Positions 1 to 30,029 of a DNA stretch of 64,000 nt are shown one piece after another. How positions within the stretch are numbered: the stretch's first letter is position 1; every line of letters begins with the position of its first letter. The notes beneath the pieces are model-generated. The model was not told the DNA's origin. It did not search any database and saw only the letters and a program-made list of their open reading frames with translations. The translations under genes were made by a program, and so were the position numbers. The DNA lies in contig JAERTH010000083.1 of NCBI GenBank assembly GCA_016844955.1, positions 15,712 through 79,711 on the forward strand, written 5' to 3'. The DNA comes from Fidelibacterota bacterium (GTDB taxonomy: Bacteria; Fidelibacterota; UBA8477; JABMPR01).

Positions 1-125
1 ACCACCATAGCTGGCAACGCTGCTGCCTGGAGGTTGTTTACCAACATACCAACGGCATAGGCCGACTTTTGCTTCAGGGAAATGCGATCTTCCGGGGCAG
101 TTTTGTATTGTGTGACTGCACTCAT
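1..125 (-). CDS. Partial CDS (5' end only, continues past left edge): putative MFS/GPH-type sugar:cation symporter
   Basis: Absent from the ORF track because it is open-ended. Minus-strand ATG at 125-123 is preceded by AAGGAG (139-134, overlapping the stop of the upstream GH gene). It translates to MSAVTQYKTAPEDRISLKQKSAYAVGMLVNNLQAAALPAMV..., which resembles the N-terminus and TM1 of glycoside-pentoside-hexuronide/MFS transporters. Same strand as, and contiguous with, the two GH genes. Confidence 0.4.
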   Translation of the reverse strand, partial: MSAVTQYKTAPEDRISLKQKSAYAVGMLVNNLQAAALPAMV

Positions 126-137
126 CTGCGTGACTCC

Positions 138-1382
138 TTAATTCTCTCGAGCTGACTGAATATTAGAAAAATGATTGTTGATTTGATCAGGGGTAACATC
201 AGTTGTATAGGGATTCAGGGAATGTATCTCTTGAAGTGTGTAATAAGCTGTTCTGGGTATTAAATCATAAAGTCCCAGTGAGTCACTGGGACCCTTGGCA
301 CAAATACCGAACCACTCCTCATTCATATTGTTATTCCCTGGTACAAAATCATGGGAATAACCACCATTGGACCAGGATGCATGGGTGTCGTGACTGTCCA
401 GGTTGGTCTGTTGACCATGTTTCCACCAGCCATCGCTGAACTGAAAGGTGAATCCGCCAATGGCATTGCCCAGTTTCCCCTGGCCGCTGGATTGAGTATA
501 GATTTCATGCCAGTTTTCCAGCAGGTATCTGGCCTGGGAGGCCTGATCTTCCTGCATTTCAATAGCATGGAAGGCATCTGCACCAAATTCAGTGAGCATA
601 ACAGGGATGCCTAATTTCTGGTCAACAGCCTGGAACAGATCATCAAAGGAAAGCCCACGGTACACATTGGTTCCAAAGACATCCAGATTCTCAATTTCCT
701 CAGCGATTATATCAAGGAACAATAGATCACCATTGGCAATGGCTACAGGTCGCTTGTCATCCAGTTCATGAATGGCGCTGATGGCTTCATTAAATAGCGA
801 ATATAGATGGCGAGCACGGTAAGTTTCTACTGATTCCCCCTCAGGGAGGTTTTCAGTCTCACCACCTTCCCAGAACAGTCCGAAATTATTTTCATTGCCC
901 AGAAGCCACATGAGCACGCCAGGAACCTCATGGAAACTTTCTACCATTTCGCTCACTTCGTCAAGCACTATCTGACGTACTGTTAAATCTGAGTAATTGA
1001 CTTTTCCCACCCACTGGCCATTTAGCTCCAGGCCATAACGGGCAAAGGAATGATTTAGAACCGTAAAAATCCCATACTCTTCGTAGATAAATTGCACCCA
1101 GCGGGGGGGGATATGAGAGTATTGGCGGATGGTATTGACGCCCATGTTTTTTAACAAAGGCATCTCATTGGCCAAAGCGGACAGAATAATCTCATCAGAT
1201 TGAGACCATAGATTGTAACTATAGTTGGTTCCAATGGGGAAGTAGTCCCAGTTCATGCCGAAAATCATATAGTCTTCACCATTTACCTGAAGCCGTTGTC
1301 CCTGACCATCGCTCACAACCCTAACTTCTGAAACAGGGTCAGTGGAGCAGGAAAAGCCTGATATCACAATCAGAAAACCCAT
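138..1382 (-). CDS. Clan GH-A (TIM-barrel) glycoside hydrolase lipoprotein, family not assignable by eye (GH2-TIM/GH5/GH158-like)
   Basis: 414-aa ORF with a lipoprotein-like N-terminus (MGFLIVISGFSCS). Acid/base-type motif 'WLLGNENN', nucleophile-region motif 'MLTEFGADAF', and 'GVNTIRQY'. Sits in a beta-glucan locus next to GH3. Confidence 0.7.
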   Translation of the reverse strand: MGFLIVISGFSCSTDPVSEVRVVSDGQGQRLQVNGEDYMIFGMNWDYFPIGTNYSYNLWSQSDEIILSALANEMPLLKNMGVNTIRQYSHIPPRWVQFIYEEYGIFTVLNHSFARYGLELNGQWVGKVNYSDLTVRQIVLDEVSEMVESFHEVPGVLMWLLGNENNFGLFWEGGETENLPEGESVETYRARHLYSLFNEAISAIHELDDKRPVAIANGDLLFLDIIAEEIENLDVFGTNVYRGLSFDDLFQAVDQKLGIPVMLTEFGADAFHAIEMQEDQASQARYLLENWHEIYTQSSGQGKLGNAIGGFTFQFSDGWWKHGQQTNLDSHDTHASWSNGGYSHDFVPGNNNMNEEWFGICAKGPSDSLGLYDLIPRTAYYTLQEIHSLNPYTTDVTPDQINNHFSNIQSAREN

Positions 1383-1440
1383 AATAGCTTGGGCTAATCT
1401 ACTAACCTTTCGGGCTGGGCTTGTTATATGGGTGGTGTTA

Positions 1441-3288
1441 CTAATAAGTCAATCCATACCCATAGCTAAAGAGTGGTGAATAATTGGAGTCTTTCCAATT
1501 GATTGGAATCTGATCCATGGAAGCCGGCCAGGTCACAGATAATTTTCCCGAAGGTGCATAATCGCCGAAAAGGACATCGGTAATTCCATTGCCCTCTGTT
1601 CCCGGTAACCAGGCTGCCAGTAAGGAGTTGGCATCTTCCAGTACATCATTGATAATCATGGGGCGACCTGAGAGCAGTACAACCACCATGGGAATACCGC
1701 TTGACTTCACTCTATTGATGACCTGAATGTCATCTTCATCAAGCTCAAGTTCAGCGCGGTCACCGTGCATCTCTGCATAGGGACTCTCACCCACAACCAC
1801 GATTACGGCATCAGCTCCTGAAATATCAGATCCAGTGAGGGAGTGAATAACCTGGGTTTCGCTTGAAACCATTTCCTGCACGCCTTCCAAAATGCTGGTG
1901 CCAGGGGTGATGTCACCCATTCCGCCCTGCCAGGCAATGCTCCAGCCACCACACTGCATCCCCACATTGTCAGCACCACGGCCAGTTACAACGATTTTAG
2001 ATAAATCTTTTGCAAGTGGGAGTGTGCCGTCATTCTTAAGCATCACAAGTGATTCACGCACGGCCTGTCTAGCTATTTCGCGATGTTCTGCAGATCCCAC
2101 GGTGGAGATCAAGCTACGATCATTGGCGTAGGCTGAATCCAGCAGACCCATACTTTTCTTCACATTCAGGATGCGGGTCACAGCATCATCAATCCGGGTC
2201 ATCTCAACGGAGCCTTCATTCACGGCTTCTTTTAATAATTTGATAAATTCACGATATCCTTCACCGCTACCACGGGTGATACCAGGCACCATAACCATAT
2301 CGACACCAGCATTGATACTGGTGATGATGTCACTTTTGTAATCGCCGGGAATTTCATCAATGCCTTGCCAGTCTGAGACAATGAAGCCCTCAAAACCCAA
2401 CTCATCCTTCAGAAGATCGGTGAGCAGTTGCCTGTGACCATGCAGTTTGACGCCATTCCAGCTGTTATAGGAAGCCATAATGGTTGCAGTTCCAGCCTCA
2501 ATGGCTTCAATGTAGGGGGGGAGGTGCAGGGTCCGCAGTGTTCCTTCATCGATGATGGCATCGCCGCGATCGATTTGACCATTGTTACCGGTTCCCCAGG
2601 TGGGGGCCCCATCTCCGATATAGTGTTTGGTACAGGCGGCAACGGCATCGGGTGCATTGAGGGCACTGCCCTGATAGCCTTCCACCATTGCCTGGCCTAA
2701 AAGTGAGATGAGCGCAGGATCTTCACCAAAGGATTCATACGCTCGACCCCAACGCTCATCTCTAGAATTTGCCACACAGGGGCTAAAGGTCCAATTGATA
2801 CCCGTTGCTCGAACTTCTTTTGCAGTCAGCGCTGCCAATGCCTTCACAAGCTCGGGGTTGCCCATGGCTCCCAGACCGATGTTGTGCGGAACGATGGTCG
2901 CTCCATAAACATTGTTGTGACCATGAATGGCATCGATTCCATACATCAGGGGGATTCCCAGACGTGTCTGAGACGCCAGGTCCTGATATTCATCCACCAT
3001 ATCAGCCCACGCAGCTGGTTCATTCACATCTGGGGCGGAACCTCCACCACTGAGAATGGAACCCAGATTGTAGTCCCGGATATCGCTTTCCCGTACAAGG
3101 TGGGCTCGTCCGGCCTGGGTCATTTGACCCACCTTCTCTGCCAGGGTCATGGATTGGACAATGGATTCCACCGATTTGCCATGGATTGATTCGGCTTTTA
3201 CGATGGGCTCGGTCGTATTGCAGCCGAGAATAACCAGCGTAGTTAACAGCATTAAAAATGAGAGGTGTTTATCTTGAAGTTTGAACAT
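1441..3288 (-). CDS. GH3 beta-glucosidase / exo-beta-1,3(4)-glucanase (BglX-like), lipoprotein
   Basis: 615-aa ORF. GH3 hallmarks: 'RLGIPLMYGIDAIHG', 'KHYIGDG', 'GFIVSDWQGID' (nucleophile Asp region). Signal/lipobox 'LVILGCN'. RBS GAGGAG lies upstream of ATG 3288. Confidence 0.9.
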   Translation of the reverse strand: MFKLQDKHLSFLMLLTTLVILGCNTTEPIVKAESIHGKSVESIVQSMTLAEKVGQMTQAGRAHLVRESDIRDYNLGSILSGGGSAPDVNEPAAWADMVDEYQDLASQTRLGIPLMYGIDAIHGHNNVYGATIVPHNIGLGAMGNPELVKALAALTAKEVRATGINWTFSPCVANSRDERWGRAYESFGEDPALISLLGQAMVEGYQGSALNAPDAVAACTKHYIGDGAPTWGTGNNGQIDRGDAIIDEGTLRTLHLPPYIEAIEAGTATIMASYNSWNGVKLHGHRQLLTDLLKDELGFEGFIVSDWQGIDEIPGDYKSDIITSINAGVDMVMVPGITRGSGEGYREFIKLLKEAVNEGSVEMTRIDDAVTRILNVKKSMGLLDSAYANDRSLISTVGSAEHREIARQAVRESLVMLKNDGTLPLAKDLSKIVVTGRGADNVGMQCGGWSIAWQGGMGDITPGTSILEGVQEMVSSETQVIHSLTGSDISGADAVIVVVGESPYAEMHGDRAELELDEDDIQVINRVKSSGIPMVVVLLSGRPMIINDVLEDANSLLAAWLPGTEGNGITDVLFGDYAPSGKLSVTWPASMDQIPINWKDSNYSPLFSYGYGLTY

Positions 3289-3347
3289 GTATTCTCCTCG
3301 GGAGGGTACTATTATTGGTAAAAATCTTTAAGACTAATACAATATTG

Positions 3348-3364
3348 TGGCAATTTGAATGCCA
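3348..3364 (-). promoter_or_regulatory. Sigma-54 (-24/-12) promoter candidate for the GH3-GH-transporter operon
   Basis: The minus strand reads TGGCAT-TCAAA-TTGCCA (3364->3348), against the consensus TGGCAC-N5-TTGCW. GG and GC are correctly spaced. The predicted TSS is about 50 nt upstream of the GH3 ATG (3288). A sigma-54 enhancer-binding response regulator is encoded about 3 kb away. Confidence 0.55.
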
Positions 3365-3422
3365 TCACATAGCCTGGCTTTATGAGCAGGTGCAAAACGA
3401 AAATATTTGTCCCCAAAACCTG

Positions 3423-3444
3423 GGCAAACTGAAACTCATTTGCC
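3423..3444. promoter_or_regulatory. Inverted repeat GGCAAA-N10-TTTGCC, possible enhancer (UAS) for the sigma-54 promoter
   Basis: 6-bp perfect arms (3423-3428 / 3439-3444). The centre is about 95 bp upstream of the predicted TSS of the GH3 promoter, a typical EBP-site distance. Confidence 0.25.
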
Positions 3445-3669
3445 ATGATTGATATCTGCTATATGAATCTATAGTGCTGCAGTAAAGACAACATAACCAA
3501 CAGCTAAGCTGATGAGCAGGATTGTTGAAATGGATGGTGAAATCCAAAAGTGGGAAGGTGATTGCCCTGAAAAAGTAAATTCAAGACCAATTGCTGCTGC
3601 GATATTTTGATATGTGAGAATATACAGCTTGTATTGTTTTGATATAAAAATTATTATCATTTCAATAAT

Positions 3670-5031
3670 ATGAATGAATCAGGAGATACCCGTAAGACCA
3701 CCTCTTTGTCCAGCTTGCAGACTTTCACAACGAGCTTGCCCTTCCTATTTATTGTAGGCATTTTAATTTTCCTGGTTTCCTTTGTTATATCTTCATTCCC
3801 CCTGGGTCGTAATCCCATAAAACAGAACCAGATACAACGTGTTTATTTTGCGGATAATATTGCCGCAGGACACTCCAGCATCATTCAAAAATTTAATGAG
3901 ATTCATGAGGGGGAAATTGAAGTAATAGCTATCGATCTTCCCTTTAGAAAATTTAATACCAATCAGCGTAAAGAGCTTATTGCCCGCAATCTGCGAAGTC
4001 GGGGGAGTCGGATAGATGTCTTTTCAGTGGATTTGATCTGGTTGCATAGGTTTACCAAATGGGCAGAACCTTTGACACCTTATTTCTCTCCAGCTTCAAT
4101 TGAAACCATGTTGCCGTCTTCACTGAACACCTGTTATGTGGATGGGGTGCTATATGCCATTCCCATGTACACAGATATCGGAGCATTGTATTACCGTGAG
4201 GATATCATAAAGTCACTACCTGATGGGGAAGCACTTCTTGAGCGCATCAAGCAATCCATTTCCTGGGAAGAGCTATTGGAAATCAAGCGCAAGCATTTTC
4301 CTCAAAAGCCCATATACATTCCTCAAGCGGATGCCTACGAAGGACTAATCTGCAATTTCAATGAAATTCTGGGAATACCGCTTCAGCACCGGGATACAGG
4401 CGAGATTTTAAATCTGACGGATGCGTTTGTGGTGAGGAAGACCCAGTTTTTTCGGGATATGTTTGTAAATGGTATAGCTCCACTGGAAGCTCTGGATATG
4501 ACTGAAGATGATTGCATCAGTTATGCACTGACCCACGATATCCCCTTTGTCAGAGGATGGCCCACCTTAAACAATGAAACCGACCCTCGTTTTGATCCCG
4601 AAATGTTTAAGAAGCTACGCATTGCACCCATGCCTCACTTTGAGGGAGAAAATTCAGCCCCTGTGTTTGGGGGCTGGAATATGATGCTGTCCCGCCATTC
4701 TCCAGTAAAGGAAGCGGCTATTTTGTTTATGCAATTTGCTTCCTCTGTGGAAGGGCAAACTATTTTCTACGAAGCGGAAGGACTATTGCCCATTCAAGAG
4801 ACCTTCTATGATACTGCCAGGACTGACAGGAAACGGGAGCGGCTCGCTAGCATTGAAAAGATGATGGCCAACGGCATTCATCGGCCTGCACTGGATCATT
4901 ACACTTTACTTTCAGATATCCTATCAGAACGACTGCATCTGATTTTGTCCGGTGAATTGGAAGTTGAAGCTGGATTGAAACTGGCGAAGGAAGAAATATC
5001 CATCGCCCTTCAGCGAGGCACATCATTTTGA
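3670..5031 (+). CDS. Membrane-anchored extracellular solute-binding protein (SBP family 1-like), probable sugar-sensing partner of the adjacent kinase
   Basis: 453-aa ORF with an N-terminal TM helix (LPFLFIVGILIFLVSFVISSF). SBP-like segments 'IDVFSVDLIWLHRFTKWAEPLTPYF' and 'GGWNMMLSRHS'. No ABC permease or ATPase is adjacent. The stop codon overlaps the start of the kinase gene. Confidence 0.65.
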   Translation: MNESGDTRKTTSLSSLQTFTTSLPFLFIVGILIFLVSFVISSFPLGRNPIKQNQIQRVYFADNIAAGHSSIIQKFNEIHEGEIEVIAIDLPFRKFNTNQRKELIARNLRSRGSRIDVFSVDLIWLHRFTKWAEPLTPYFSPASIETMLPSSLNTCYVDGVLYAIPMYTDIGALYYREDIIKSLPDGEALLERIKQSISWEELLEIKRKHFPQKPIYIPQADAYEGLICNFNEILGIPLQHRDTGEILNLTDAFVVRKTQFFRDMFVNGIAPLEALDMTEDDCISYALTHDIPFVRGWPTLNNETDPRFDPEMFKKLRIAPMPHFEGENSAPVFGGWNMMLSRHSPVKEAAILFMQFASSVEGQTIFYEAEGLLPIQETFYDTARTDRKRERLASIEKMMANGIHRPALDHYTLLSDILSERLHLILSGELEVEAGLKLAKEEISIALQRGTSF

Positions 5032-6503
5032 CAGTGCAGAACAGATTGCGTGAATATCATTTTGAAATTCGCCATGTATTGGTCTTGTTTATTATCGTGG
5101 TCGTTTTCCAAACAGCCCTTTCCTTTATTAATAATCAATCGACCAATCACATTTTCCAGCAAGCCATGGACTACTATCGCAGAGATTCGGCTGAACGAGT
5201 CGCAGACCTGACCACCACTGCCCTGGAGCTGCTCATCGAGCAGGGGCGCGTTGATGGTGAAGTGAACACAGCCAACGCTGATGATGCTATCCAATCGCTG
5301 GATAAACTCATGAGTCAACAGACCCTGCAGCGTAATGTGGATGAAGTATACCTTCTGGTTACACAGGGAGATAGTGTGCTGGCCTTAAGTCAAGGTCAGG
5401 ATATTTATAATCTGTATCTGGGAGGTGGGGTTGAAGGTGCCATCAATGGTGATTCCACTCCACTGAACGCCATTTCATATTTTGAAACGAACCGACAATT
5501 CGTTCTGGGAAGTGAGCAGGTCATCAGTTCTCTGGAGGGTGACAACACCTTCCATGTTCTGGTACCGTTTTACGATCGAGGTGAGATTGCCGGTGCAACC
5601 TATATGCGGGTTACTCCGGATATTGCCGGTTTTCTCGAGTTAATTGAATCTGCCTACAATCAATCCGGAATCCTGTTTACAGGCCTGATTCTCATGGGCT
5701 TTATGGCCATGTTCTTTATTTATTCATACACAGCCAAGGAGCGTGATCTGGTTCAACAGCAGCTGTTTGATCAGAGTTCAAAACAACTCAGGGAGCAGGT
5801 TGAGCACCAGAAGGAATCTCTTTTCACCAAGCGTATTTACCACACCCACCACAAAGCCGAAAAGGTGATGGGCTTCATCAAGGAAGATCTGCGCACACTC
5901 AACAATGACAATCTTGATGATACGCGTTATCGCGTCACCAAGTACGCCAACTTTGTATCCCGGGTGATTTATGATATGAAATCCTACGATCCACCCATTC
6001 ATGTGATCAGAAATCCCTTGTTTCGAACGGATATCAATGAGGTGATTAAATTTATTGTGGATAATATTTTTCAGCGTGTTTATCGTGAGGGAAAAACCAA
6101 TGCGGTAAATATTGAGCTGGATCTGGCTGAGAATTTACCCACTGTCCAGGTCAATGAATATGTGGTCTGGGAAATCATTGAACCACTTATTCAGAACTCC
6201 ATCGATCATAACTCTGAAATAAGCCTCACCATTATCCTGCGAACCTCAATGCCGGACGAGCATACTTTGCTGATTGAGATTCAAGACAATGGGAAGGGCT
6301 TTCCCGAGGAATTTTTGGATGTAGATGCTGATGGAGTAAAAGCGGTTTTTAAAGAACTGGTAAGCACCAAGGATACCGATCAGAATTCAGGTTATGGTTG
6401 TTATCTGGCCCAGGAAATCAGTCGCCGTTGCGGCTGGCAGGTCAGTGCACATAATGTTAAAGAAGGTGGCGCTTGTTTCACCATTCAGGCCAAGGTAGGA
6501 TAA
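5028..6503 (+). CDS. Sensor histidine kinase (two TM segments, extracytoplasmic sensor region, HATPase_c)
   Basis: 491-aa ORF. TM1 is 'VLVLFIIVVVFQTALSFI', TM2 is 'GILFTGLILMGFMAMFFIY'. H-box-like 'YHTHHKAEKVMGFIKEDL', N-box 'EPLIQNSIDHN', G-boxes 'DNGKGFPEEF' and 'GYGCYLAQEISRRCGW'. TTG (5028) or GTG (5034) start overlapping the SBP stop (5029-5031). Confidence 0.8.
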   Translation: MTVQNRLREYHFEIRHVLVLFIIVVVFQTALSFINNQSTNHIFQQAMDYYRRDSAERVADLTTTALELLIEQGRVDGEVNTANADDAIQSLDKLMSQQTLQRNVDEVYLLVTQGDSVLALSQGQDIYNLYLGGGVEGAINGDSTPLNAISYFETNRQFVLGSEQVISSLEGDNTFHVLVPFYDRGEIAGATYMRVTPDIAGFLELIESAYNQSGILFTGLILMGFMAMFFIYSYTAKERDLVQQQLFDQSSKQLREQVEHQKESLFTKRIYHTHHKAEKVMGFIKEDLRTLNNDNLDDTRYRVTKYANFVSRVIYDMKSYDPPIHVIRNPLFRTDINEVIKFIVDNIFQRVYREGKTNAVNIELDLAENLPTVQVNEYVVWEIIEPLIQNSIDHNSEISLTIILRTSMPDEHTLLIEIQDNGKGFPEEFLDVDADGVKAVFKELVSTKDTDQNSGYGCYLAQEISRRCGWQVSAHNVKEGGACFTIQAKVG

Positions 6504-6506
6504 CAC

Positions 6507-7952
6507 ATGGACAATGATCAGATACGGGTTTTACTCATTGAAGATGAGGAATATGATGTTCGCCGGATTCAGAGTACAATTTATCCATTCCGGGAACGAA
6601 TCAGTATCAAGGACATCGTGTCCACCGGTGAGGATGCACTCAATGCCGTTGATAAAAAGGGTCCCTTTGACGTAGCGATCCTGGATTATCAGATCTCTGG
6701 CGGACTCTATGGTGAACGGCTCATCAAGCGCATGAAGATTGCGGATCCCAGTCTGCAGATCATTGTGATTACAAAAATGACAATTAACCAGACCGACCTG
6801 CACTTTGCCAATCAGATGATGGAGAGTGGAGCCTACTGGTTTGGCACAAAATATCCTTCAGATATCGAAGATTTTATCTACCAGCCTACTGATTTCATAC
6901 TCACCATCATGAATGCTGCAGAAAAACGGAAACTGGAAGAGGACCGGCTAAAATCACAGAACCGGCTGGATCGTAAAATTGATCGAATCGTCCAGGAGAG
7001 ACCTCTGCTGGGCAATTCCCCGATCATTTTAAAGGTTAAAGAGCATATAGAGCGCTACGCAGCAACCAGTGCCAATGTTTTGATCTCTGGTGAATCAGGA
7101 TCTGGTAAAGAGCTCATTGCACGTAACATTCACTATCAATCCGCTCGTAAATACGAAAACTTTGTCACCGTTAATTGTGCCGCCATTCCGGATGAACTTA
7201 TTGAGAGCGAATTGTTCGGATTCGTGAAGGGCGCTTTTACCGGGGCCAAGGAAGATAAGCTGGGTTTATTTGAACAGGCCAACAGCGGAACCATCTTTCT
7301 GGATGAAATCTCTGAACTGCCCTATCAGGCACAAGCCAAACTGCTCCGTGTATTGGAAACGGGGGAGATGGATAAAATTGGCCGCAAGAAGAGCTACAAG
7401 GTGGATGTGCGGGTTATTTCCGCCACCAACAAGAACCTGAAAGATTTGATGAAACGGAATCATTTTCGCGAGGATCTCTATTATCGTCTCAATATCCTCA
7501 GAATTCAGGCACCCGCTGTGAGGGAACGCACTGAAGATATTAGACTTCTGATTGATTATTTTGTCGGTCACCATTGCCGTGATTTAAGTATCACTATCCC
7601 CAAAATCACTGATTCTGCCTGGAAAATACTGGAACTTTTTCACTGGCCTGGAAATGTGCGTCAGCTTAAAAATGTGGTGCAGCGAATGGTGATCTTATGT
7701 AATGATCGAATTACCAAAGATGTGGTTCATATGGCGCTTGATCTACAGGGTCAGGATTCCATATCATCTTTGGTAAACCCGGTTTTCTCAACCGAGAATA
7801 TCCTGCCCCTAAAAGATGTGGAACAGAGTTTTCGGCGTCAATATTTCGAGTTTGTCAGGCAGCACTGCAAAACCGACACTGAAGCCGCTGGAAAATTGGG
7901 TCTTGCCCCGCCAAATTTTCATCGGATGTGTAAGGAATTAGGTTTGAAATAG
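6507..7952 (+). CDS. Sigma-54-dependent response regulator (REC + AAA+ EBP + Fis-type HTH), NtrC family
   Basis: 481-aa ORF. REC domain 'VLLIEDEEYD...VAILDYQI'. Walker A 'GESGSGKE'. Sigma-54 contact motif 'GAFTGA'. 'FREDLYYRLNI'. C-terminal HTH 'AAGKLGLAPPNFHRMCKELGL'. Confidence 0.9.
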   Translation: MDNDQIRVLLIEDEEYDVRRIQSTIYPFRERISIKDIVSTGEDALNAVDKKGPFDVAILDYQISGGLYGERLIKRMKIADPSLQIIVITKMTINQTDLHFANQMMESGAYWFGTKYPSDIEDFIYQPTDFILTIMNAAEKRKLEEDRLKSQNRLDRKIDRIVQERPLLGNSPIILKVKEHIERYAATSANVLISGESGSGKELIARNIHYQSARKYENFVTVNCAAIPDELIESELFGFVKGAFTGAKEDKLGLFEQANSGTIFLDEISELPYQAQAKLLRVLETGEMDKIGRKKSYKVDVRVISATNKNLKDLMKRNHFREDLYYRLNILRIQAPAVRERTEDIRLLIDYFVGHHCRDLSITIPKITDSAWKILELFHWPGNVRQLKNVVQRMVILCNDRITKDVVHMALDLQGQDSISSLVNPVFSTENILPLKDVEQSFRRQYFEFVRQHCKTDTEAAGKLGLAPPNFHRMCKELGLK

Positions 7953-8089
7953 ATTAGAATCGTGTGAGGAATAGTTATTATAATAATAAGAAAATTATTC
8001 CAATAATAACGTGAATCACCAAATTTTGTGACCATCGCCAACTTCAACAGCCAATCCAGCAAATCCACTCTAAGAAAATATTTTAAGAT

Positions 8090-8133
8090 TTACAAATTGT
8101 AAGTCACTGTATTACAATAAGTAACAGTTGTAT
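8090..8133. promoter_or_regulatory. Cluster of TTACAA/TTGTAA inverted half-sites (candidate regulator/EBP binding sites)
   Basis: TTACAA-a-TTGTAA (8090-8102). TTGTAA-N9-TTACAA (8097-8117), extendable to ATTGTAA/TTACAAT. TTACAA-N10-TTGTAT (8112-8133). Located 145-190 bp upstream of the SSF start codon. Confidence 0.25.
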
Positions 8134-8175
8134 GCGTTAATGTCTGATCTTACTCAGATAAAAAAAAAGCATCCA

Positions 8176-8201
8176 TGGACTATATTCGGCACAAAGTGGT
8201 C
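8176..8201 (+). promoter_or_regulatory. Weak sigma-54-like -24/-12 candidates upstream of the SSF transporter operon
   Basis: TGGACT-ATATT-CGGCA (8176-8191) has GG-N10-GC spacing correct but 5 mismatches in flanking consensus positions. It overlaps cGGCAC-AAAGT-GGTC (8187-8201), which has a good -24 element but no GC at -12. Neither candidate is convincing alone. Confidence 0.2.
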
Positions 8202-8278
8202 TGGTAATTGAACCTGAGTACTTCGCAATTTATGAAAATATTTATTAATACGTATCGTTTACTGAACAAGGATCATTC

Positions 8279-9886
8279 ATGAGTGGCCTGGATTATGTTG
8301 TTATAGTCCTCTACTTTATCATGGTTTTGGGGATAGGTGTTTACTTCTCCCGTAGAACTTCTGATAGCACCGAATACTTCCTGGCCGGAAGGAATGTCGG
8401 GTGGGTAGCCATCGGTGCGTCTCTCTTTGCGTCCAATATTTCCAGTGAACATTTTATAGGCCTGGCTGGAACAGGTTCCAGCAGTGGTCTTGCTGTAGGT
8501 CATTTTGAATGGTTGGCTGCCTTTATCGTCCTCTTCCTGGGCTGGGTTTTTGTCCCCTTCTACTTAAAATCCGGTGTTTTTACCATGCCCGAATTTCTGG
8601 AAAGACGATATGGGCGGTCCAGTCGCATGTATTTAACTTCCGTATCAATTGTAGCTTATGTCATCACAAAAATATCTGTCACCCTGTTCGCTGGTGGATT
8701 GCTCCTGAACAAAATTCTGGGCTGGGATATGATGACTTCAGCTATTGTACTCATTATAGTCACGGGGATATACACGATAGCTGGTGGTTTGAGTGCAGTT
8801 ATCTATACAGAATTGATTCAGTCCATCATCCTGATCGGTGGCGCTATAGTTTTGACCGTGCTTGGTCTCAACGAAGTAGGGGGCTTCACAGGGTTACAGG
8901 CAAAATTGCCACCAGAATTCTTTGAAATGTTCAAGGGTATGAATCATCCGGATTTCCCCTGGACCGGTATTATCTTTGGGGCACCTATTCTGGGAATATG
9001 GTACTGGTGCACGGATCAATTCATCGTACAGCGAGTACTCAGTGCCAAAAATATCAACCATGCCCGTTCAGGTGCCATCCTGGCTGGTTTTCTTAAGATA
9101 TTGCCCGTATTTATTCTGGTATTGCCCGGTTTGATCGCAGCTGCACTTTTTGGTACCACAGGGGATGAAGCCTATCCTACACTGGTTACCAGCTATCTCT
9201 TACCCTCTGGTTTAAAGGGCATCGTCATCGCCAGCCTGCTGGCAGCACTCATGTCTTCACTGGCCAGTGTGTTCAACAGTACATCTACCTTATTTACTAT
9301 TGATTTTTATAAAAACTTTCGACCCGACTCCTCCGAGGTTGAGCTGGTCCTGGTGGGCCGATTAGCTACAACAGTCATGGTGATCCTGGGTGTGCTTGCA
9401 GTACCCTTGATCACCATGCTGAGTAGCCAATTATTTGTCTATCTGCAAAGTGTGCAGGCCTATATAAGTCCTCCTATCGCTGCTGTATTCATTATGGGAA
9501 TTTTCTGGCACAGGGCCAATTCCAGGGGGGCAATATCTGCCCTGGGAGCCGGAGCTGTGCTGGGTGCTCTACGCTTTGTACTTGAAATCCTGGTAAAACA
9601 GGGTGTGTCATTAGGGATGTTTGAATGGTATGCCACCATGAATTTTCTCCATTTTGCAGTCTTTCTCTTCATTATTTCGGTTGGGATAGTCTATGTGGTC
9701 AGCCTGGCTACACCCAGACCCAATCAGCAACAGATCACTGGTTTAACAATGGCTACAGCATCCGAAATGCAGACGGATATGAGTCGTCGCATGGATGTTC
9801 AGGATCCACTTTGGAATAGAATTAACATTATTGCATCTATTGTATTGGTAGTAAGCATACTCATACTCTGGGTGAAATTTGCATAG
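8279..9886 (+). CDS. Sodium:solute symporter family (SSF/SGLT-like) sugar transporter
   Basis: 535-aa polytopic membrane ORF. SSF-type N-terminus 'YFLAGRNVGWVAIGASLFASNISSEHFIGLAG'. About 13-14 hydrophobic segments. Confidence 0.9.
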   Translation: MSGLDYVVIVLYFIMVLGIGVYFSRRTSDSTEYFLAGRNVGWVAIGASLFASNISSEHFIGLAGTGSSSGLAVGHFEWLAAFIVLFLGWVFVPFYLKSGVFTMPEFLERRYGRSSRMYLTSVSIVAYVITKISVTLFAGGLLLNKILGWDMMTSAIVLIIVTGIYTIAGGLSAVIYTELIQSIILIGGAIVLTVLGLNEVGGFTGLQAKLPPEFFEMFKGMNHPDFPWTGIIFGAPILGIWYWCTDQFIVQRVLSAKNINHARSGAILAGFLKILPVFILVLPGLIAAALFGTTGDEAYPTLVTSYLLPSGLKGIVIASLLAALMSSLASVFNSTSTLFTIDFYKNFRPDSSEVELVLVGRLATTVMVILGVLAVPLITMLSSQLFVYLQSVQAYISPPIAAVFIMGIFWHRANSRGAISALGAGAVLGALRFVLEILVKQGVSLGMFEWYATMNFLHFAVFLFIISVGIVYVVSLATPRPNQQQITGLTMATASEMQTDMSRRMDVQDPLWNRINIIASIVLVVSILILWVKFA

Positions 9887-9925
9887 GTTTAACGATATGT
9901 TATTAACAATCAAGGAGGTTACACA

Positions 9926-12460
9926 ATGAAGACAATGTTACGCTTAACACTTGTTCTCACCCTTCTCGTAGTTATCGGACAGGCACAGGTCATCAATAAT
10001 TTTGATGCTGCTCCTGCTGACACCAACTATTGGGAATGGTACGAGCCAGTAACTGAAGGCGGGTTGGAAACCAATCCTGCTGGACATTATGCCATCAGCA
10101 CCGGTGCCGATCCTGAACTGGGTTGGATCGAAGTTAGCTATGTCACCGATATTGTACTGGAAGGTGATGGAGCTATGAAGGTAGATTATAGTATCCACAA
10201 CTCAGAAACCTGGGGTGGTTACTCCAAACTGCATCATTTTGAACCAGATACTCTAAGTTCTGTTACTTATGATTGGTCTCTTTATGACAGTTTGTCCTTC
10301 TCCTACTATAATGTTACACCACAGGACTCAACAGGTCGTGTGCATCTGAGACTCAATCTTGGAGATTATGGCGATATCGATGCACCTGACTATAGTGAAC
10401 TGGGTGAGTTCTGGTATTCTTTCCATTACATCTTGGATGAAGAACCAGGCTGGCACACCATCGAGATGGCACTAGAAAGTTCAGAATCCCAGAGTGGAAC
10501 TGCCTTTAACCATACAGGTTGGTCAGGAACCCCTGGAAACCTCGAGCTTGATACAGACAGAATCAAAAACTGGGCCTTTGAATTTTCCGTCAGTGGTAGT
10601 GGTGATGGCGATGTGGTCACAGGTAGTGTGATTTTTGATGATTTCAAACTGATTGCATCCAAGAACAGTCTTGAAAATGGCAGTTTTGAAACTGCCGATG
10701 CCAATGAAGATGACATGGGTTGGGGTTGGACACATGCTGGTGACGGCCAGGCTCATACAAACATTGTGATGGATGCTGACGTTGCCCGCACAGGTGACTA
10801 CTATGCTGAATTAGGTGTTGAGAATGGTTCAGCCTGGGGTGTTTTCTATACTGAGCAAACCATTCCTGCTTCACAGGGTGAAACCTGGGAATTGGGTGGA
10901 TACATTAAAGACATCTCCGAGACAGTAACCGGCGGAGCATTTGGTGGATATAAGATTGAAGCCAAGAATGATGCTGGAGACATTCTTTACACAACCGGTG
11001 ATGTACTGTTTGATATCACAACCGACTATCAAAAGTTTACTACCAGTGCAGTAATGCCTGAAAATACTACCAATGTAGCAGCCGTTCTGGTGGTGACCCG
11101 TTGGGATGGTTCCAATGTGAACTATGCTTTTGATGATATGTACCTCATGAGTGTTGGTGTGTTGGATCTTGAGCCACCTGTTGAAGTTGCCAATGTCAGC
11201 GCCATTGCTGGTACCAATTTCAACATGGTAACCTGGGATGAGAATGCTGGTGAAGAAGGCGAGACATATAACATTTATGCAAGTCGCTTCCCAATTACTG
11301 ACCTGAGTTCCAACAATGTTGATGTTGTTGCTTCTGGTCACCTTGAAGGTTCACCCACTGTTGTTCATTATCTCTATGCTCCTCTGAATGACGAAGTGCA
11401 GGAATTCTACTACGCCGTTGAATGTGTCGATGCATCAATGAATATTGGACCAGCCGGTGTTGCTGCAGCTACCTATACCAACACTGCTCTGGGTATTCCA
11501 ACTATTTCACTGGTTACACCAACCAACTTTGTTGCGGATGGATTTTTTGATGATTGGGCTGGCATCACACCTTTCCAGATTGGATTCACACCTGGATCAT
11601 GGGGCTATTCAAGTGTATGGCAAACTATAGATAATGATGAAGATTGTTCTGCATCCATCTACTTAGCCATGGATGATGAGTATCTCTATGTAGCCGCAGA
11701 TGTGCTGGATAACGTATACAATGGTTATCTAAATAGTGGCAACTGGTGGGATATGGATGCTTTACAGCTGTTTATAGGTCTATATAACCAACGTGGCGAG
11801 CGTCACAATGCATTGCTCCGTGGGGATGAACCAGATTATGGTTTAATTTTCGCTGACAGCAGCATTTTCCGTGACAATGGTGATCGTTACACACTTGCTG
11901 AAGATGATGATGGCATGTATTACTTTGAAGGTTTTAACCCCGATTATGTTATAGAAGCCATGATTCCTCTGGATTCTCTCGCTTCTGGTGGTGGTTTTAC
12001 TGATCAGGTCTATGCCCCCACAAATGGTGATCGCATTCTCATCGAGCCCATTCTTCATGACAATGATGGAACCTGGGAAGGAAATGTCCAGTCATCCTAT
12101 CTGAATGAAGATAATGCCTGGCAGACACCTGGCGTCTGGAACTACACCTTTGTTGGTGATATGGACGCAGTTGCCATCGATGACGTTGAGACTCCCTCTG
12201 CATATCGCCTGAACAACAATTATCCGAACCCCTTCAACCCAAGCACAGTTATTTCATATAAAATTGCAAACGCAGAACAGGTTCGCCTGAGTGTTTACAA
12301 TGTTCTTGGTCAGGAAGTTGCAGTTCTAGTGGATGAAGTTCAGAATGCTGGTGCGCATGAACTACAGTTCAATGCTGGAACATTGGCTTCAGGTATCTAT
12401 ATGTATAGATTAGAAGCTGGTGGCTATACAAGTACACAAAAAATGATCCTGATGAAATAG
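9926..12460 (+). CDS. Secreted non-catalytic carbohydrate-binding protein (CBM4_9-like + FN3-like + CBM9-like) with T9SS C-terminal sorting domain
   Basis: 844-aa ORF with RBS AAGGAGG and a signal peptide. CBM4_9-like 'ENGSFE...GYKIEAKN'. CBM9-like 'FFDDWAGITPF...YLYVAADVLDN...DALQLFIG'. CTD 'NNYPNPFNPSTVISYKI...GIYMYRLEAGGYTSTQKMILMK'. No catalytic motif recognised. Confidence 0.7.
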   Translation: MKTMLRLTLVLTLLVVIGQAQVINNFDAAPADTNYWEWYEPVTEGGLETNPAGHYAISTGADPELGWIEVSYVTDIVLEGDGAMKVDYSIHNSETWGGYSKLHHFEPDTLSSVTYDWSLYDSLSFSYYNVTPQDSTGRVHLRLNLGDYGDIDAPDYSELGEFWYSFHYILDEEPGWHTIEMALESSESQSGTAFNHTGWSGTPGNLELDTDRIKNWAFEFSVSGSGDGDVVTGSVIFDDFKLIASKNSLENGSFETADANEDDMGWGWTHAGDGQAHTNIVMDADVARTGDYYAELGVENGSAWGVFYTEQTIPASQGETWELGGYIKDISETVTGGAFGGYKIEAKNDAGDILYTTGDVLFDITTDYQKFTTSAVMPENTTNVAAVLVVTRWDGSNVNYAFDDMYLMSVGVLDLEPPVEVANVSAIAGTNFNMVTWDENAGEEGETYNIYASRFPITDLSSNNVDVVASGHLEGSPTVVHYLYAPLNDEVQEFYYAVECVDASMNIGPAGVAAATYTNTALGIPTISLVTPTNFVADGFFDDWAGITPFQIGFTPGSWGYSSVWQTIDNDEDCSASIYLAMDDEYLYVAADVLDNVYNGYLNSGNWWDMDALQLFIGLYNQRGERHNALLRGDEPDYGLIFADSSIFRDNGDRYTLAEDDDGMYYFEGFNPDYVIEAMIPLDSLASGGGFTDQVYAPTNGDRILIEPILHDNDGTWEGNVQSSYLNEDNAWQTPGVWNYTFVGDMDAVAIDDVETPSAYRLNNNYPNPFNPSTVISYKIANAEQVRLSVYNVLGQEVAVLVDEVQNAGAHELQFNAGTLASGIYMYRLEAGGYTSTQKMILMK

Positions 12461-12492
12461 GATCGTTGACGTTATAAGTAAATAAATATCAA

Positions 12493-12525
12493 GGGGGGGG
12501 AGATTAGACATTCCTCCCCCTTTTT
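12493..12525 (+). terminator. Rho-independent terminator/attenuator after the CBM protein gene
   Basis: Stem GGGGGAG (12496-12502) / CTCCCCC (14-20 of 125xx), 11-nt loop, followed by TTTTT (12521-12525). Only 17 nt separate it from the TonB-receptor start, so read-through is likely needed. Confidence 0.65.
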
Positions 12526-12542
12526 AAGTAGGTAACAGATAG

Positions 12543-15245
12543 ATGATGAAATTTCACTTGAGTAAACTCCGCCGAACATTCCTGACATCAGGCTTGTTTA
12601 TGATTTTAAGTAGTGGTTTGCTGGCGCAGACGACTGGCAAGATCGCTGGGACAATCGTTGATGAGGGAACCGGCGAACCTTTACCCGGTGCCAATATTGT
12701 ACTGGTTGATACCCGTATGGGTGCAGCTGCAGATATTGAAGGACGCTATTATATTCTGAATATTCGCCCCGGTCACTATGACCTACGGGTAGATATGATT
12801 GGATATGCCCCGGTTATCGTGGAAAATATCCCTGTTTCAATCAACAGGACGGTTCCAGTTGATGTCAAAATGACACCTGCCACCATCAGTGGTGAGGTTG
12901 TTGTGGTTGAGGTAGAACGAGCAGCCATGAAAAAGGACCAGACCGGAACCATTAAGAATATTTCTTCCGAACAACTGGAAATCCTACCGGTTGAGAACCT
13001 GGGGGCCGTTGTAGCCATGCAGGCAGGTGTAGTCGAAGGCCACTTCCGCGGTGGACGTTCAACTGAAGTTTCATATATGATTGATGGTGTGGCTGTGGAT
13101 GAGACCTTTGGTGGTCAATATGCTGCAGTTGACATTGAACCAGAGACTATCAAGGATCTGGAAGTCATCACCGGTACATTTAATGCCGAATATGGCCGTG
13201 CCATGAGTGGTGTTGTAAACGCCGTGACAAAAGATGGTAGCAAAAATTTTGAAGGCTCATTCTATACTGGATTAGCCAACTATTTAACCACGAATGATAC
13301 TATTTTTCCCGGGATTGATGAAGCGGGAGTGAACCGAAATGAGGACTATAAGTTTCAATTGAGCGGTCCCCTGGTCGGTGACAAAGTTACTTTCTTTTTT
13401 AATACGCGTTATCAGAATAATCGCAACCACTTGAACGCCCTGAGCCGATTTAAAGTGACCGATCTCAGTGACTATACATCTGAGCAGCCATCGGAGTGGA
13501 TAACTGAGAATACTGGAGACAGCGTTTATGTCCCCATGAATGGTTCTGAGAATCGCTCATTTCTGGGCAAAATTGCAATGAATATTTTCAGTGGTGGCAA
13601 GGTATCGATTATGCACTCCATCAATAGGGACAGATGGGATGGATACGATCATGGTTATAAATACAATCCAGATGGTGTGGCCAGCACATACAGAGAAACT
13701 GATTTTACTGTCCTGCAGTTAAATCACATGCTTTCAAATAGCCTGTTCTATGAAACCAAATTATCTAAGATGGTTAACTACAACGGGTACTACATTTTTG
13801 AAAATGTAGCCGATTCAGGTTACGTTAATGATGTCTATTCCAATAATTATGGCCCTGGTCTGTTCACCGGAGGTCAGAATAAGGACCATAGCGAACGCTG
13901 GATGACCGATCTGGCTGCCAAGTTTGATCTGACCTGGCAGATGAATTCACACCACAACATTAAAACCGGTGTTAACTATGTAAAACATGACCTGACCAAT
14001 GAGTGGTATCAAATTCGAAATCTCTGGGAGAATACGGAATTTGAGTCAGAACGCTATACACCCGTAACCTATGGTGATAGCTCAGTCTATGCAGACGTGT
14101 ACACCGTCAATCCAGTTGACTTCTCGGCCTATATTCAGGATAAAATGGAATATGATGAGATGGTTATCAATTTTGGATTACGCTATGACTGGTTTGACCC
14201 TGCAACCGTCTATCCTACCAACCTTAGAAACCCTGCGAATCAGCTACAGTTTGAAAACGACTCAAGCCGAACTTCACAATATCCTGAAACGCCGACAACT
14301 TCACAAATCAGCCCTCGTATTGGACTGGCTTATCAATTAGGAAATAAGGCCATTCTCCATTTTAGCTATGGCCACTTTTTCCAGTTGCCGCCCATGTATG
14401 CCATGTACCAGAATCATTCCTTCCTGATTGCACCCAGTGATTACGCAACAACCAATGGAAACTCAAACCTGAAATCTGAAAAGACAGTGGCCTACGAAAT
14501 AGGTCTCTGGCAGGAAGTGGGTCCAGGGATGGGACTGGAAGTATCGCTTTTCTATAAAGACATCTACAATCTGTTGAGTACAAAAGTGATCAGTACTTAT
14601 AACCAGATTGAATATGGCATGTATACCAATAAGGACTATGGAAATGTCAGGGGATTGGAAGTCAAATTTGATGTTTTCCAGGCACCTCTAAACTTCTGGG
14701 TGAATTACACACTTCAATACACTCGCGGTAATGCAGATTCACCGAATCAGTCCTTTGACCGAGCCGGTTCCAACCAGGATCCTGTGAACAAGTTTATTCC
14801 TATGAGTTGGGATCAACGCCACACGCTGAATGGGACGCTGGGCTATATTGGTGACAATTATGGAGTTTCCATCACTGGATACTTTAACTCCGGTGCACCA
14901 TACACCTTCTCACCCCAGGGAGAGAGCGTGTTGGCCCGTGTGAATCTGGATCCCAACAATGATTATCGTCCCATTAGATATCATGCTGATATGACGGCCT
15001 ATTATCATCTGAAACTCATGGGTAAAACCAGTCTACGCTTTGATCTCTCCATTTACAACCTGTTTGATCGTCTTAACGAGAACTGGGTCAGTGGCGAGAC
15101 CGGCCGAGCCTATACTGCTATCGTAACTGATGCCGAACTATCTAATTTTAAGAGTGACTTTAGTGAATATCGTGAACTTTATCAAGATCCCAGCGCATAC
15201 AGCGCTCCTCGCCAGATCAAACTGGGCGTGGGAATCAATTTCTAG
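12543..15245 (+). CDS. TonB-dependent outer-membrane receptor with N-terminal CarboxypepD_reg domain (SusC-like architecture, no SusD partner)
   Basis: 900-aa ORF with a signal peptide. 'GKIAGTIVDEGTGEPLPGANIVL' (CarboxypepD_reg). Plug region 'ISSEQLEILPVENLGAVVAMQAGV'. 'TFNAEYGRAMSGVVN'. C-terminal barrel strand ending '...KLGVGINF'. Confidence 0.9.
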   Translation: MMKFHLSKLRRTFLTSGLFMILSSGLLAQTTGKIAGTIVDEGTGEPLPGANIVLVDTRMGAAADIEGRYYILNIRPGHYDLRVDMIGYAPVIVENIPVSINRTVPVDVKMTPATISGEVVVVEVERAAMKKDQTGTIKNISSEQLEILPVENLGAVVAMQAGVVEGHFRGGRSTEVSYMIDGVAVDETFGGQYAAVDIEPETIKDLEVITGTFNAEYGRAMSGVVNAVTKDGSKNFEGSFYTGLANYLTTNDTIFPGIDEAGVNRNEDYKFQLSGPLVGDKVTFFFNTRYQNNRNHLNALSRFKVTDLSDYTSEQPSEWITENTGDSVYVPMNGSENRSFLGKIAMNIFSGGKVSIMHSINRDRWDGYDHGYKYNPDGVASTYRETDFTVLQLNHMLSNSLFYETKLSKMVNYNGYYIFENVADSGYVNDVYSNNYGPGLFTGGQNKDHSERWMTDLAAKFDLTWQMNSHHNIKTGVNYVKHDLTNEWYQIRNLWENTEFESERYTPVTYGDSSVYADVYTVNPVDFSAYIQDKMEYDEMVINFGLRYDWFDPATVYPTNLRNPANQLQFENDSSRTSQYPETPTTSQISPRIGLAYQLGNKAILHFSYGHFFQLPPMYAMYQNHSFLIAPSDYATTNGNSNLKSEKTVAYEIGLWQEVGPGMGLEVSLFYKDIYNLLSTKVISTYNQIEYGMYTNKDYGNVRGLEVKFDVFQAPLNFWVNYTLQYTRGNADSPNQSFDRAGSNQDPVNKFIPMSWDQRHTLNGTLGYIGDNYGVSITGYFNSGAPYTFSPQGESVLARVNLDPNNDYRPIRYHADMTAYYHLKLMGKTSLRFDLSIYNLFDRLNENWVSGETGRAYTAIVTDAELSNFKSDFSEYRELYQDPSAYSAPRQIKLGVGINF

Positions 15246-15254
15246 GAGTATGAA

Positions 15255-18761: not shown

Positions 18762-18772
18762 GGAGGTGAGAG

Positions 18773-19825: not shown

Positions 19826-19828
19826 ATA

Positions 19829-21337: not shown

Positions 21338-21353
21338 ATGCGTGTTAAATCGC

Positions 21354-23156: not shown

Positions 23157-23163
23157 AGACCCC

Positions 23164-30004: not shown

Positions 30005-30029
30005 AATTCATATCCAATTGATATGAATT
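30005..30029. promoter_or_regulatory. Perfect 10-bp inverted repeat AATTCATATC-N5-GATATGAATT (operator/UAS candidate)
   Basis: Read directly from the sequence. Its centre is about 118 bp upstream of the TGGCAC element at 30135. Confidence 0.3.

Follow-up and report, generated by a model that had tools for sequence, protein, structure and literature searches.

Among sensory systems in which a solute-binding protein (SBP) works together with a histidine kinase, AioX-AioS-AioR of Rhizobium sp. NT-26 and Agrobacterium comprises an arsenite-sensing binding protein, a kinase and a sigma-54 regulator whose genes form one transcript driven by a sigma-70 promoter; the target operon lies next to them under an RpoN promoter (PMC6011840). 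We have analyzed a trio of genes in a 64,000-nucleotide stretch of DNA, the window, that sits on contig C83 of a 4.2-Mb metagenome-assembled genome of Marinimicrobia (Marinisomatota). The genes encode an SBP, a sensor histidine kinase and an NtrC-type sigma-54 enhancer-binding response regulator (EBP). This trio is probably a binding-protein-assisted three-component sugar sensor with a sigma-54 output, acting as the dedicated regulator of the surrounding beta-glucan (laminarin-type) locus. It is like AioXSR in gene order, in logic, in a sensor-operon promoter that is not of the sigma-54 type and in a neighbouring target of the RpoN type (both predicted in the present case). It differs in that the SBP is a transmembrane (TM)-anchored sugar-binding protein of the CUT1 type, the sensor part of the kinase has no match in Pfam, and glycan-related targets lie on both flanks; moreover, the trio occurs in bacteria of the FCB group, AioXSR in Proteobacteria. 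AioX is assigned to a binding-protein sub-family that differs from that of the window SBP, with arsenite as its ligand (PMC5908839). As the window SBP belongs to SBP_bac_1/8 and its nearest structures are sugar SBPs, we liken the two systems in logic and not by descent. A preliminary description of this DNA had invoked SBP-assisted kinases as precedent. This logic is indeed known, but AioXSR, the system that already combines an SBP, a kinase and a sigma-54 activator, was not cited there (PMC6011840).

A transporter-independent sugar SBP that is encoded together with a kinase and a regulator, as in the trio, is also found in CuaD-CuaS-CuaR of Ruminiclostridium cellulolyticum, which senses cellobiose and induces uptake genes (PMC10384115), and in XylFII-LytS-YesN of Clostridium beijerinckii, a sugar three-component system (cited in PMC8050422). 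Both control ABC importers in Gram-positive bacteria, whereas the trio is linked to sigma-54 and to a TonB receptor, enzymes of the type IX secretion system (T9SS) and an SSF symporter. Regulators of the CuaR/YesN type are sigma-70-type (AraC/YesN-like) response regulators and not sigma-54 activators. In the LuxP-LuxQ-(LuxU)-LuxO pathway of Vibrio, a binding protein with a sugar-derived ligand modulates a PAS/PDC-like kinase and the pathway ends in an NtrC-type sigma-54 regulator, so that here, too, a periplasmic binding protein and a membrane kinase lead to an NtrC-type activator. Unlike in the trio, the kinase, LuxQ, is a hybrid that signals via LuxU, a phosphotransfer protein; the binding protein, LuxP, belongs to the ribose-binding-protein class; the pathway controls small RNAs of quorum sensing and not catabolic genes; and the genes do not form a trio with their targets. 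In Bacteroidia, hybrid two-component systems (HTCS), SusR and pairs of an extracytoplasmic function (ECF) sigma factor and an anti-sigma factor share with the trio the principle of a periplasmic oligosaccharide sensor that is embedded in the locus and induces genes for TonB receptors and glycoside hydrolases (GH). With respect to these regulators of polysaccharide utilization loci, the sensor of the trio is non-homologous and its output runs via sigma-54. Our literature searches found no combination of a sugar SBP, a kinase and a sigma-54 regulator for glycan loci in the phyla that carry the trio.

The three genes and their proteins

The open reading frames and their Pfam domains agree to the base with the SBP, kinase and GAFTGA regulator of the preliminary description:

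3670-5031, + strand: SBP gene, TM-anchored CUT1-type sugar-binding protein; 453 amino acids; Pfam SBP_bac_1 / SBP_bac_8
5028-6503, + strand: sensor histidine kinase gene; 491 amino acids; Pfam HATPase_c only
6507-7952, + strand: NtrC-type sigma-54 enhancer-binding response regulator (EBP) gene; 481 amino acids; Pfam Response_reg + Sigma54_activat + AAA_lid_14

The junctions also read as first reported. The stop codon of the SBP gene, TGA at 5029-5031, overlaps a TTG start of the kinase gene at 5028-5030, with a GTG at 5034 as the alternative; since the kinase of orthologue L002 begins with ATG in an identical 4-nt overlap and the kinase N-termini align, TTG 5028 is the likelier start. The kinase gene stops at 6501-6503 and the ATG of the regulator follows at 6507, leaving a gap of 3 nt (6504-6506). 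In nine other loci the gap between SBP and kinase genes lies between -4 and +14 nt.

Searched with a profile of 28 SBP homologues, the closest relatives of known structure were the trehalose/maltose-binding protein of Thermococcus (1EU8, E=6e-69) and MalE3 of Thermotoga (6DTQ, E=4e-61). The AlphaFold2 (AF2) model of the SBP (pLDDT 86.9, pTM 0.82) has the two-lobe fold of periplasmic binding proteins, and its best Foldseek matches, 1eu8, 6dtq and 6j9w, were obtained at a probability of 1.00 with E=1e-27 and target-normalised TM-scores of 0.79-0.84. Residues R100, D169, W336 and R405 align with R49, D118, W287 and R356 of the Thermus alpha-glycoside-binding protein (6J9W), whose role in ligand binding we take from PDB titles stating that they were mutated in its sugar complexes, and the four are invariant or nearly so among the 28 homologues. 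A motif TNxRKxL...R as well as GGW and RP elements of the pocket are likewise common to the SBP and relatives of the 1EU8/6DTQ type. As evidenced by profile, model and pocket residues, the SBP is a CUT1 protein of the trehalose/maltose-binding-protein subfamily, and a non-sugar class, which the preliminary description had kept as an alternative, is not borne out.

The proteins 1EU8 of Thermococcus litoralis and 6DTQ serve ABC permeases that are encoded next to them, whereas the window SBP is anchored by a TM helix and lacks a permease partner, and its gene overlaps that of a kinase. Its N-terminus consists of about 22 polar residues followed by a hydrophobic stretch of 21 residues, with neither a lipobox nor an AXA site, and is modelled as one long helix (14-41) that leads into a disordered tether; this feature is common to 28/28 aligned homologues. 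The sensor SBP is present as a single copy in the host genome. The preliminary description had noted the lack of ABC permease or ATPase partners, and in line with this the window contains no gene for a binding-protein-dependent permease, its sole ABC genes being a MacB-type efflux set (31521-34703).

In the AF2 model of the kinase (pLDDT 80) TM1 runs into a long periplasmic helix. The periplasmic part of about 180 amino acids (approximately residues 36-213) is a five-stranded alpha/beta structure with PDC-like topology, and TM2 continues as a coiled coil into a two-helix dimerization and histidine phosphotransfer (DHp) domain and a catalytic and ATP-binding (CA) domain. Foldseek pairs the cytoplasmic half, including the DHp hairpin, with WalK, HK853 and ZraS. 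Because these cytoplasmic domains dominate the whole-model search, the periplasmic fold is termed PDC-like from the secondary structure of the AF2 model only. The HATPase_c domain (E=1e-12) contains N390 in the N box, a DxGxG motif at 420-424 and GYGCY at 455-459 (G1 and G2 boxes), all of them invariant. The histidine box, RIYHxHHKAEK, is unusual, with H272 and H275 both invariant. Neither the sensor part (1-238) nor the DHp and CA parts gave a Pfam match beyond HATPase_c at E<=10, and none to a HisKA family. A search of 1.84 billion cluster representatives with the kinase returned just 39 matches at E<=1e-30. The top 17 are about 490 amino acids long, two fragments aside, and align over nearly their full length; scores then fall to those of generic CA-domain matches, a drop that points to a sharply bounded family with a sensor domain private to it.

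The regulator matches Sigma54_activat with E=1e-69 and has Walker A and B motifs and a GAFTGA loop within GFVKGAFTGA. In its receiver D13, D60, T89 and K115 are invariant, and from these residues together with the conserved motifs and the model of the kinase, both kinase and receiver are predicted to be functional. The C-terminal helix-turn-helix, ...KLGLAPPNFHRMCKELGLK, is strongly conserved across phyla. None of the three trio proteins reaches a family cut-off in NCBIfam. The LuxO model scores the regulator at E=7e-78, yet far below its cut-off, and as no equivalog cut-off is reached the protein is none of the regulators named there. Reg_prop/Y_Y_Y, AraC-type output, SusR-type and ECF/anti-sigma domains were found neither in the trio proteins nor in the annotated genes of the locus. 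The sigma factor that such a regulator needs, expected in the preliminary description, is encoded in the host genome: rpoN was found on contig C12 (Sigma54_DBD, E=2e-56).

Conservation of the trio and its neighbours

The order SBP-kinase-EBP is found in 50/50 distant and 15/15 close loci, the latter being the window and 14 relatives, and hence in 65/65; a permease gene adjoins none of these 65 trios. Members of the kinase family occur in 57/201 sampled genomes of Marinisomatota, representing 24/78 genera, with one or two copies each, and in 35/151 genomes of the class that contains the Melioribacteraceae (Ignavibacteria), with one to three copies. Database names extend the family to KSB1, Calditrichia and Ignavibacteriales. 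For every kinase match away from contig ends and breaks, the 201 Marinisomatota genomes included, an SBP gene lies directly upstream on the same strand. Sequence identity to the window proteins in the distant loci amounts to 36-46% for the SBP, 40-49% for the kinase and 50-61% for the regulator, which indicates that the sensory parts diverge faster. Across genomes the gene arrangement is clearly not a product of chance. The trio had been called unusual for this type of organism by comparison with Bacteroidota; the host belongs to Marinimicrobia, where, as in sister lineages, the trio is common, and the judgement cannot be upheld.

The map of open reading frames and Pfam domains confirms the position of the trio, divergent from a GH3 gene and upstream of transporter and GH genes:

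138..3288, - strand: divergent operon with a GH3 beta-glucosidase gene (1441-3288) and a TIM-barrel GH gene (138-1382); by Pfam
8279..26994, + strand: downstream co-directional string from SSF to GH5, inter-ORF gaps <=83 nt; by Pfam

The GH3 protein has Glyco_hydro_3 and Glyco_hydro_3_C domains and a lipoprotein-type N-terminus (...LGC), and the TIM-barrel protein (138-1382) a barrel resembling Glyco_hydro_2_C. The downstream string encodes, in this order, an SSF symporter, a CBM9-T9SS protein, a TonB-dependent receptor, a protein of 1168 amino acids, a PorV-like protein and a protein of 502 amino acids, and it ends with three GH16 enzymes followed by a GH5+CBM6 enzyme. No convincing terminator was found in 7953-12600, and generic scans for sigma-70 promoters and terminators yielded results not above those for shuffled sequence. 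In 14 other genomes of the genus or family the SBP-kinase-EBP-SSF order with a divergent GH3 gene is retained, apart from L042, where GH3 falls off the contig (13 loci with GH3).

Sugar-use genes, that is sugar transporters, TonB receptors or glycoside hydrolases, also surround the trio in 11/11 annotated distant loci; these are eleven distinct loci, L015/L016 representing one and L018/L019 another. The enzyme sets vary. One locus has a GH66 dextranase, a CBM20 protein and an ADP-glucokinase, and three have a TonB receptor, an MFS transporter, GH65 and trehalase (GH65 is missing from one). Two others contain GH3, GH5 or GH16 with CBM9, in one case together with a TonB receptor. GH5 is found beside the trio in a further locus, with GH99 a few genes off, and in yet another GH125 and GH5 flank it, with GH130 and SSF a few genes away. 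In the KSB1 locus and in one Marinimicrobia locus an SSF symporter alone stands beside the trio.

Several side observations were made on these loci. The Marinimicrobia contig of L018, which bears a paralogous trio, has at 1-3711 a trio of another kind, in which a protein of SBP_bac_5, a peptide/oligosaccharide class, is combined with a HAMP kinase and a regulator of the sigma-54 type; sigma-54 sensing assisted by binding proteins may therefore be more widespread in Marinimicrobia. In genome G143, which has two trios, the reading frame of one sensor SBP gene (C89:2511-3698) is interrupted by TAA at two positions, its kinase and regulator partners appearing intact, and this SBP copy may be decaying. 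In the Ignavibacteria-type metagenome-assembled genome of L015, the trio is adjoined by divergent genes (6136-9312) for a dCache_1 kinase and another sigma-54 regulator. The SBP gene of the L015 trio is preceded by TGGCATATTGGTTGC, and this sensor operon may itself be under sigma-54 control.

Candidate promoters and activator sites

The spacers on both sides of the trio were aligned for 15 sequences, those of the window and of its 14 close relatives; the GH3 spacer is represented by 14, as GH3 falls off the contig in L042. Most of each spacer is unalignable, and five conserved blocks stand out. The window contains the following elements:

3364..3350, - strand: sigma-54 type -24/-12 promoter TGGCAT-TCAAA-TTGC, TGGCATTCAAATTGC, 62 nt before the GH3 start
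3629..3657, + strand: putative housekeeping-type promoter of the sensor operon, TTGTAT-N17-TATTAT
3654..3668, no strand: palindrome TTATCATTTCAATAA, candidate EBP site for the GH3 promoter ~290 bp away; invariant in orthologues
7975..8009, no strand: palindromes TTATTATAATAATAA (7975-7989) and TTATTCCAATAATAA (7995-8009), 20 bp apart, candidate upstream activating sequence
8090..8118, no strand: palindrome TTACAA-A-TTGTAA ... TTACAA, between the candidate upstream activating sequence and the SSF promoter
8197..8211, + strand: sigma-54-like -24/-12 element TGGTCT-GGTAA-TTGA, 68 nt before the SSF start

The site at 3364..3350 and three others are the only matches in the window to TGGCAC-N5-TTGC with one mismatch, and none is exact. 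Before GH3, TGGCA[C/T]-N5-TTG (i.e. TGGCA-N6-TTG) is kept in 14/14 orthologous spacers although its flanks cannot be aligned. The element before SSF reads TGGTCTGGTA(A/T)TTGA across the orthologues: in all 15 the TGGT is invariant and TTG is kept (tTTG in 13, aTTG in the window and L002), while the inner bases vary, as expected for a -24/-12 element. In the host genome, 34/96 occurrences of TGGCA[C/T]-N5-TTG[A/C/T] precede a gene and are correctly oriented, against 2/30 for the counterpart with G, so that the -12 element of this organism appears less strict than the textbook TTGC. The genome yielded about 34 candidates for sigma-54 promoters, whose last -12 position appears to tolerate A, C or T but not G, and the -12 variants at the trio sites would fit this promoter usage.

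The block CTTGTATTGTTTTGATA ... ATTATTATCATTTCAATAA upstream of the SBP gene is nearly invariant in 14 orthologues, and its few variable bases fall in the spacer of TTGTAT-N17-TATTAT. We regard this element as the putative promoter of the sensor operon, which would give a nearly leaderless mRNA; a generic promoter scan did not list it. The palindrome 3654-3668 overlaps the putative -10 of this promoter, and one may speculate that the regulator thereby damps its own synthesis. The paired palindromes at 7975-8009, just past the stop codon of the regulator, are conserved in 15 orthologues.

Sites after the EBP gene were counted family-wide on 44 non-identical distant loci. TTAT-N7-ATAA is present in the first 120 bp past the EBP stop in 29/44 loci, with 44 sites in total and the consensus TTAT[C/T]A-N3-T[G/A]ATAA, and in the next 315 bp in 3 loci only. 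Composition-preserving shuffles (n=1000) gave a mean of 1.06 loci and a maximum of 5, and 0/1000 reached 29. The palindromes after the EBP gene often come in pairs spaced by 20-23 bp. Between 60 and 300 bp past the EBP stop, 23/44 loci have a relaxed -24/-12 pattern on the + (coding) strand and 0/44 on the - strand; it usually lies 70-125 bp past the last palindrome. On the opposite flank, 16 distant loci carry a TTATCA-N3-T(G/A)ATAA palindrome 56-106 bp before the SBP start, and 12 have TGGCAT-N5-TTG(C/T) directed away from the trio; in 2/2 annotated cases (L043, L046) the divergent gene is GH3. The arrangement of palindrome and -24/-12 element is visible by eye in loci of Ignavibacteria type, of Melioribacteraceae and of KSB1, and it parallels the conserved helix-turn-helix of the regulator. 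At the equivalent place before SSF the KSB1 locus has TGGTCTTTGGTTTGC (TGGTCT-N5-TTGC), with the same unusual -24 hexamer as the window.

The family-wide candidate activator sites in the window would accordingly be those at 3654-3668, 7975-7989 and 7995-8009. As palindromes and -24/-12 elements are conserved on either flank, the sequence supports the regulon link to adjacent GH and transporter genes that the preliminary description had predicted, but the three regulator sites proposed there fared less well. The inverted repeat 3423-3444 is not conserved among the 14 orthologous spacers and was rejected. The site at 8090-8133 is conserved, but within the genus only: the palindrome 8090-8118 recurs as TTTGTAAAC-N-TATACAAAC in 15/15 genus orthologues and was not seen in distant loci. 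The -24/-12 element of SSF follows it at a distance of about 100 bp, and the palindrome may serve a second regulator or a bending protein. The site at 30005-30029 was dismissed as part of the trio regulon since it represents a different motif, the perfect palindrome AATTCATATC-CAATTG-GATATGAATT, before an unrelated efflux operon.

Two further observations concern sigma-54 sites beyond the trio. The palindrome 30005-30029 is situated ~110 bp upstream of a -24/-12 match, TGGCACATGCCTTGT (30135-30149), which in turn precedes the HlyD/ABC/MacB-type (MacAB-type) efflux operon (30206-34703) by 57 nt; the region 30005-30149 resembles another sigma-54 unit, with an activator site of its own kind, for which no activator gene was found. 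On contig C52 of the host genome a second SSF symporter gene (18908-20740), its product 32% identical to the window SSF, is preceded by TTATCAATTTCATAA and a half-site, and by TGGCTTGGTTTTTGT on its strand; genes for a LacI-type regulator and a further GH3 are found in the vicinity. For the activator of the trio, this SSF gene may represent a third target. The gene divergent from it was considered as a second such activator and rejected, as its product is of GAF-PAS-LuxR type with no similarity to the EBP.

Proposed mechanism, alternatives and significance

The model that we propose builds on what is established at the sequence level: how the genes are arranged, to which classes the proteins belong, that the trio is conserved and its members occur together, that rpoN is present, and where the DNA sites lie, how well they are conserved and which strand they favour. 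The SBP-kinase-regulator operon would be expressed from its own promoter, and an uncleaved N-terminal helix would tether the SBP to the inner membrane on its periplasmic side. Surface GH16 enzymes would release a glucoside from beta-glucan that is imported by the TonB-dependent receptor and bound by the SBP. As the nearest solved relatives of the SBP bind disaccharides, a disaccharide or short oligosaccharide is the likeliest ligand, most likely laminaribiose or a short laminari-oligosaccharide; laminaribiose or laminaritriose would fit the enzyme content of the locus. The loaded, closed SBP would then dock on the PDC-like periplasmic domain of ~180 amino acids of the kinase, which would autophosphorylate at H275 or H272 and pass the phosphate to D60 of the regulator. 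The invariant adjacency of the SBP and kinase genes lends such docking indirect support. Assembled on the palindromes of the TTATCA-N3-TGATAA type that flank its operon, the regulator would use its GAFTGA loop to open two sigma-54 promoters and so induce the divergent GH3 gene and the downstream string from SSF to GH5.

A number of findings weigh against this model. The SSF promoter, TGGTCT/TTGA, deviates from the consensus TGGCAC/TTGC at -23/-21 and -12, and -24 elements of the TGGTA type are not enriched upstream of host genes. In this genus the palindromes are ~200-290 bp away from the promoters, against 70-125 bp in most loci, and the usual enhancer position is occupied by the genus-specific palindrome 8090-8118. 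In 15/44 loci no strict palindrome follows the EBP gene. In its strict form, TTATNANNNTNATAA, the palindrome is rich in A and T, carries little information and is not over-represented genome-wide (7 occurrences vs 6-15 in shuffles), for which reason the argument for it rests on position and on recurrence across loci. None of the RNA runs searched contained the SSF region, and the locus was found in three seawater DNA metagenomes only. In R. cellulolyticum two- and three-component versions both perceive cellobiose, and the CuaDSR kinase retains some sensing without its SBP.

The last point leads to a reading in which the periplasmic domain of the kinase is the primary ligand sensor and the SBP sharpens affinity or specificity or acts as a scaffold, as proposed for CuaD with CuaSR. 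The kinase does have a sizeable, folded PDC-like periplasmic domain, and in other kinases domains of this fold bind small ligands directly. The SBP, on the other hand, has never been lost: it is found directly upstream of every assessable kinase match, and kinases of this family without an adjacent SBP were seen only where a contig ended or broke at or beside the match. It also retains the sugar-pocket residues R100, D169, W336 and R405. We consider this reading unlikely. Even less probable, in our estimate, is that the trio reports a general sugar signal such as free glucose or carbon status while locus specificity comes from elsewhere. In its favour, all SBP paralogues conserve the pocket residues that make up a glucosyl subsite, the target gene nearest to the promoter encodes a Na+/solute symporter that likely carries a monosaccharide, and the second SSF gene of the genome bears the same palindrome and -24/-12 element. 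Paralogous trios, of which there are up to three per genome, nevertheless adjoin different glucan enzyme sets (GH66 dextranase, GH65 and trehalase, GH5, GH16/GH3), and SBP and kinase diverge faster than the regulator; both facts fit a diversification of ligands.

That the SBP could be an ordinary uptake protein for a CUT1 ABC transporter encoded elsewhere, with the two-component genes as incidental neighbours, was considered because permease pairs of the CUT1 type are present on contigs C52, C142 and C152 of the host genome. The permeases on C152 have a neighbouring lipoprotein SBP of their own, and on C142 an SBP is fused to a permease; those on C52 are adjacent to an uncharacterized open reading frame of 469 amino acids. 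Adjacency of SBP and kinase is invariant across phyla, with reading frames that overlap or nearly do so. The nearest true transporter SBP that we found, L005 from Fusobacteriota with 28% identity, has two permease genes directly downstream, an arrangement that never occurs in the sensor clade. Given that the permeases on C142 and C152 have SBPs of their own, that the kinase gene is invariably adjacent and that no permease gene is, a role in a CUT1 importer was rejected as hardly credible, and on the evidence of gene context the SBP is a sensor and not part of a transporter. The fusion on C142 (16769-18331) is an observation in its own right: an open reading frame of 768 amino acids joins a maltose-type SBP with a signal sequence to a MalF-like permease, with a MalG-like permease next to it, and thus represents an SBP-permease fusion in a diderm-type genome.

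As its logic is known from AioXSR and CuaDSR, the advance lies in a new family and its biological setting rather than in a new principle. New are the CUT1 SBP with its TM anchor, a kinase family whose sensor is unannotated, a sigma-54 output onto glycan loci with TonB receptors and T9SS, and a predicted activator site that can be read across phyla. Marinimicrobia (SAR406) and related bacteria, which are abundant and uncultured, consume marine organic matter, and the trio offers a testable candidate for the regulator of their laminarin-type loci, a package of three proteins with a predicted activator palindrome and two predicted sigma-54 promoters. It also points to which periplasmic sugar acts as the inducing signal. 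Since trios stand beside other glucan-degrading gene sets in several phyla as well, regulons could be predicted from metagenomes. The trios further provide a compact set of sugar sensors; E. coli has sigma-54 and could therefore serve as a host for reconstituting SBP, kinase and activator.

In a wider proposal, which we put forward tentatively and hold to be somewhat short of probable, the trio is the main and ancestral regulator class of SusD-less glycan loci with TonB receptors and T9SS in the non-Bacteroidia phyla of the FCB group (Marinimicrobia, Ignavibacteria, KSB1 and Calditrichota). If this is true, the shared TTATCA-N3-TGATAA site and the relaxed -24/-12 element would allow glycan regulons to be read from metagenomic sequence, and the fast-evolving pair of SBP and kinase sensor would have been swapped or would have diverged, retuning each paralogue to another glucoside. 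The trio would then take the role that is held in Bacteroidia by hybrid two-component systems and SusR.

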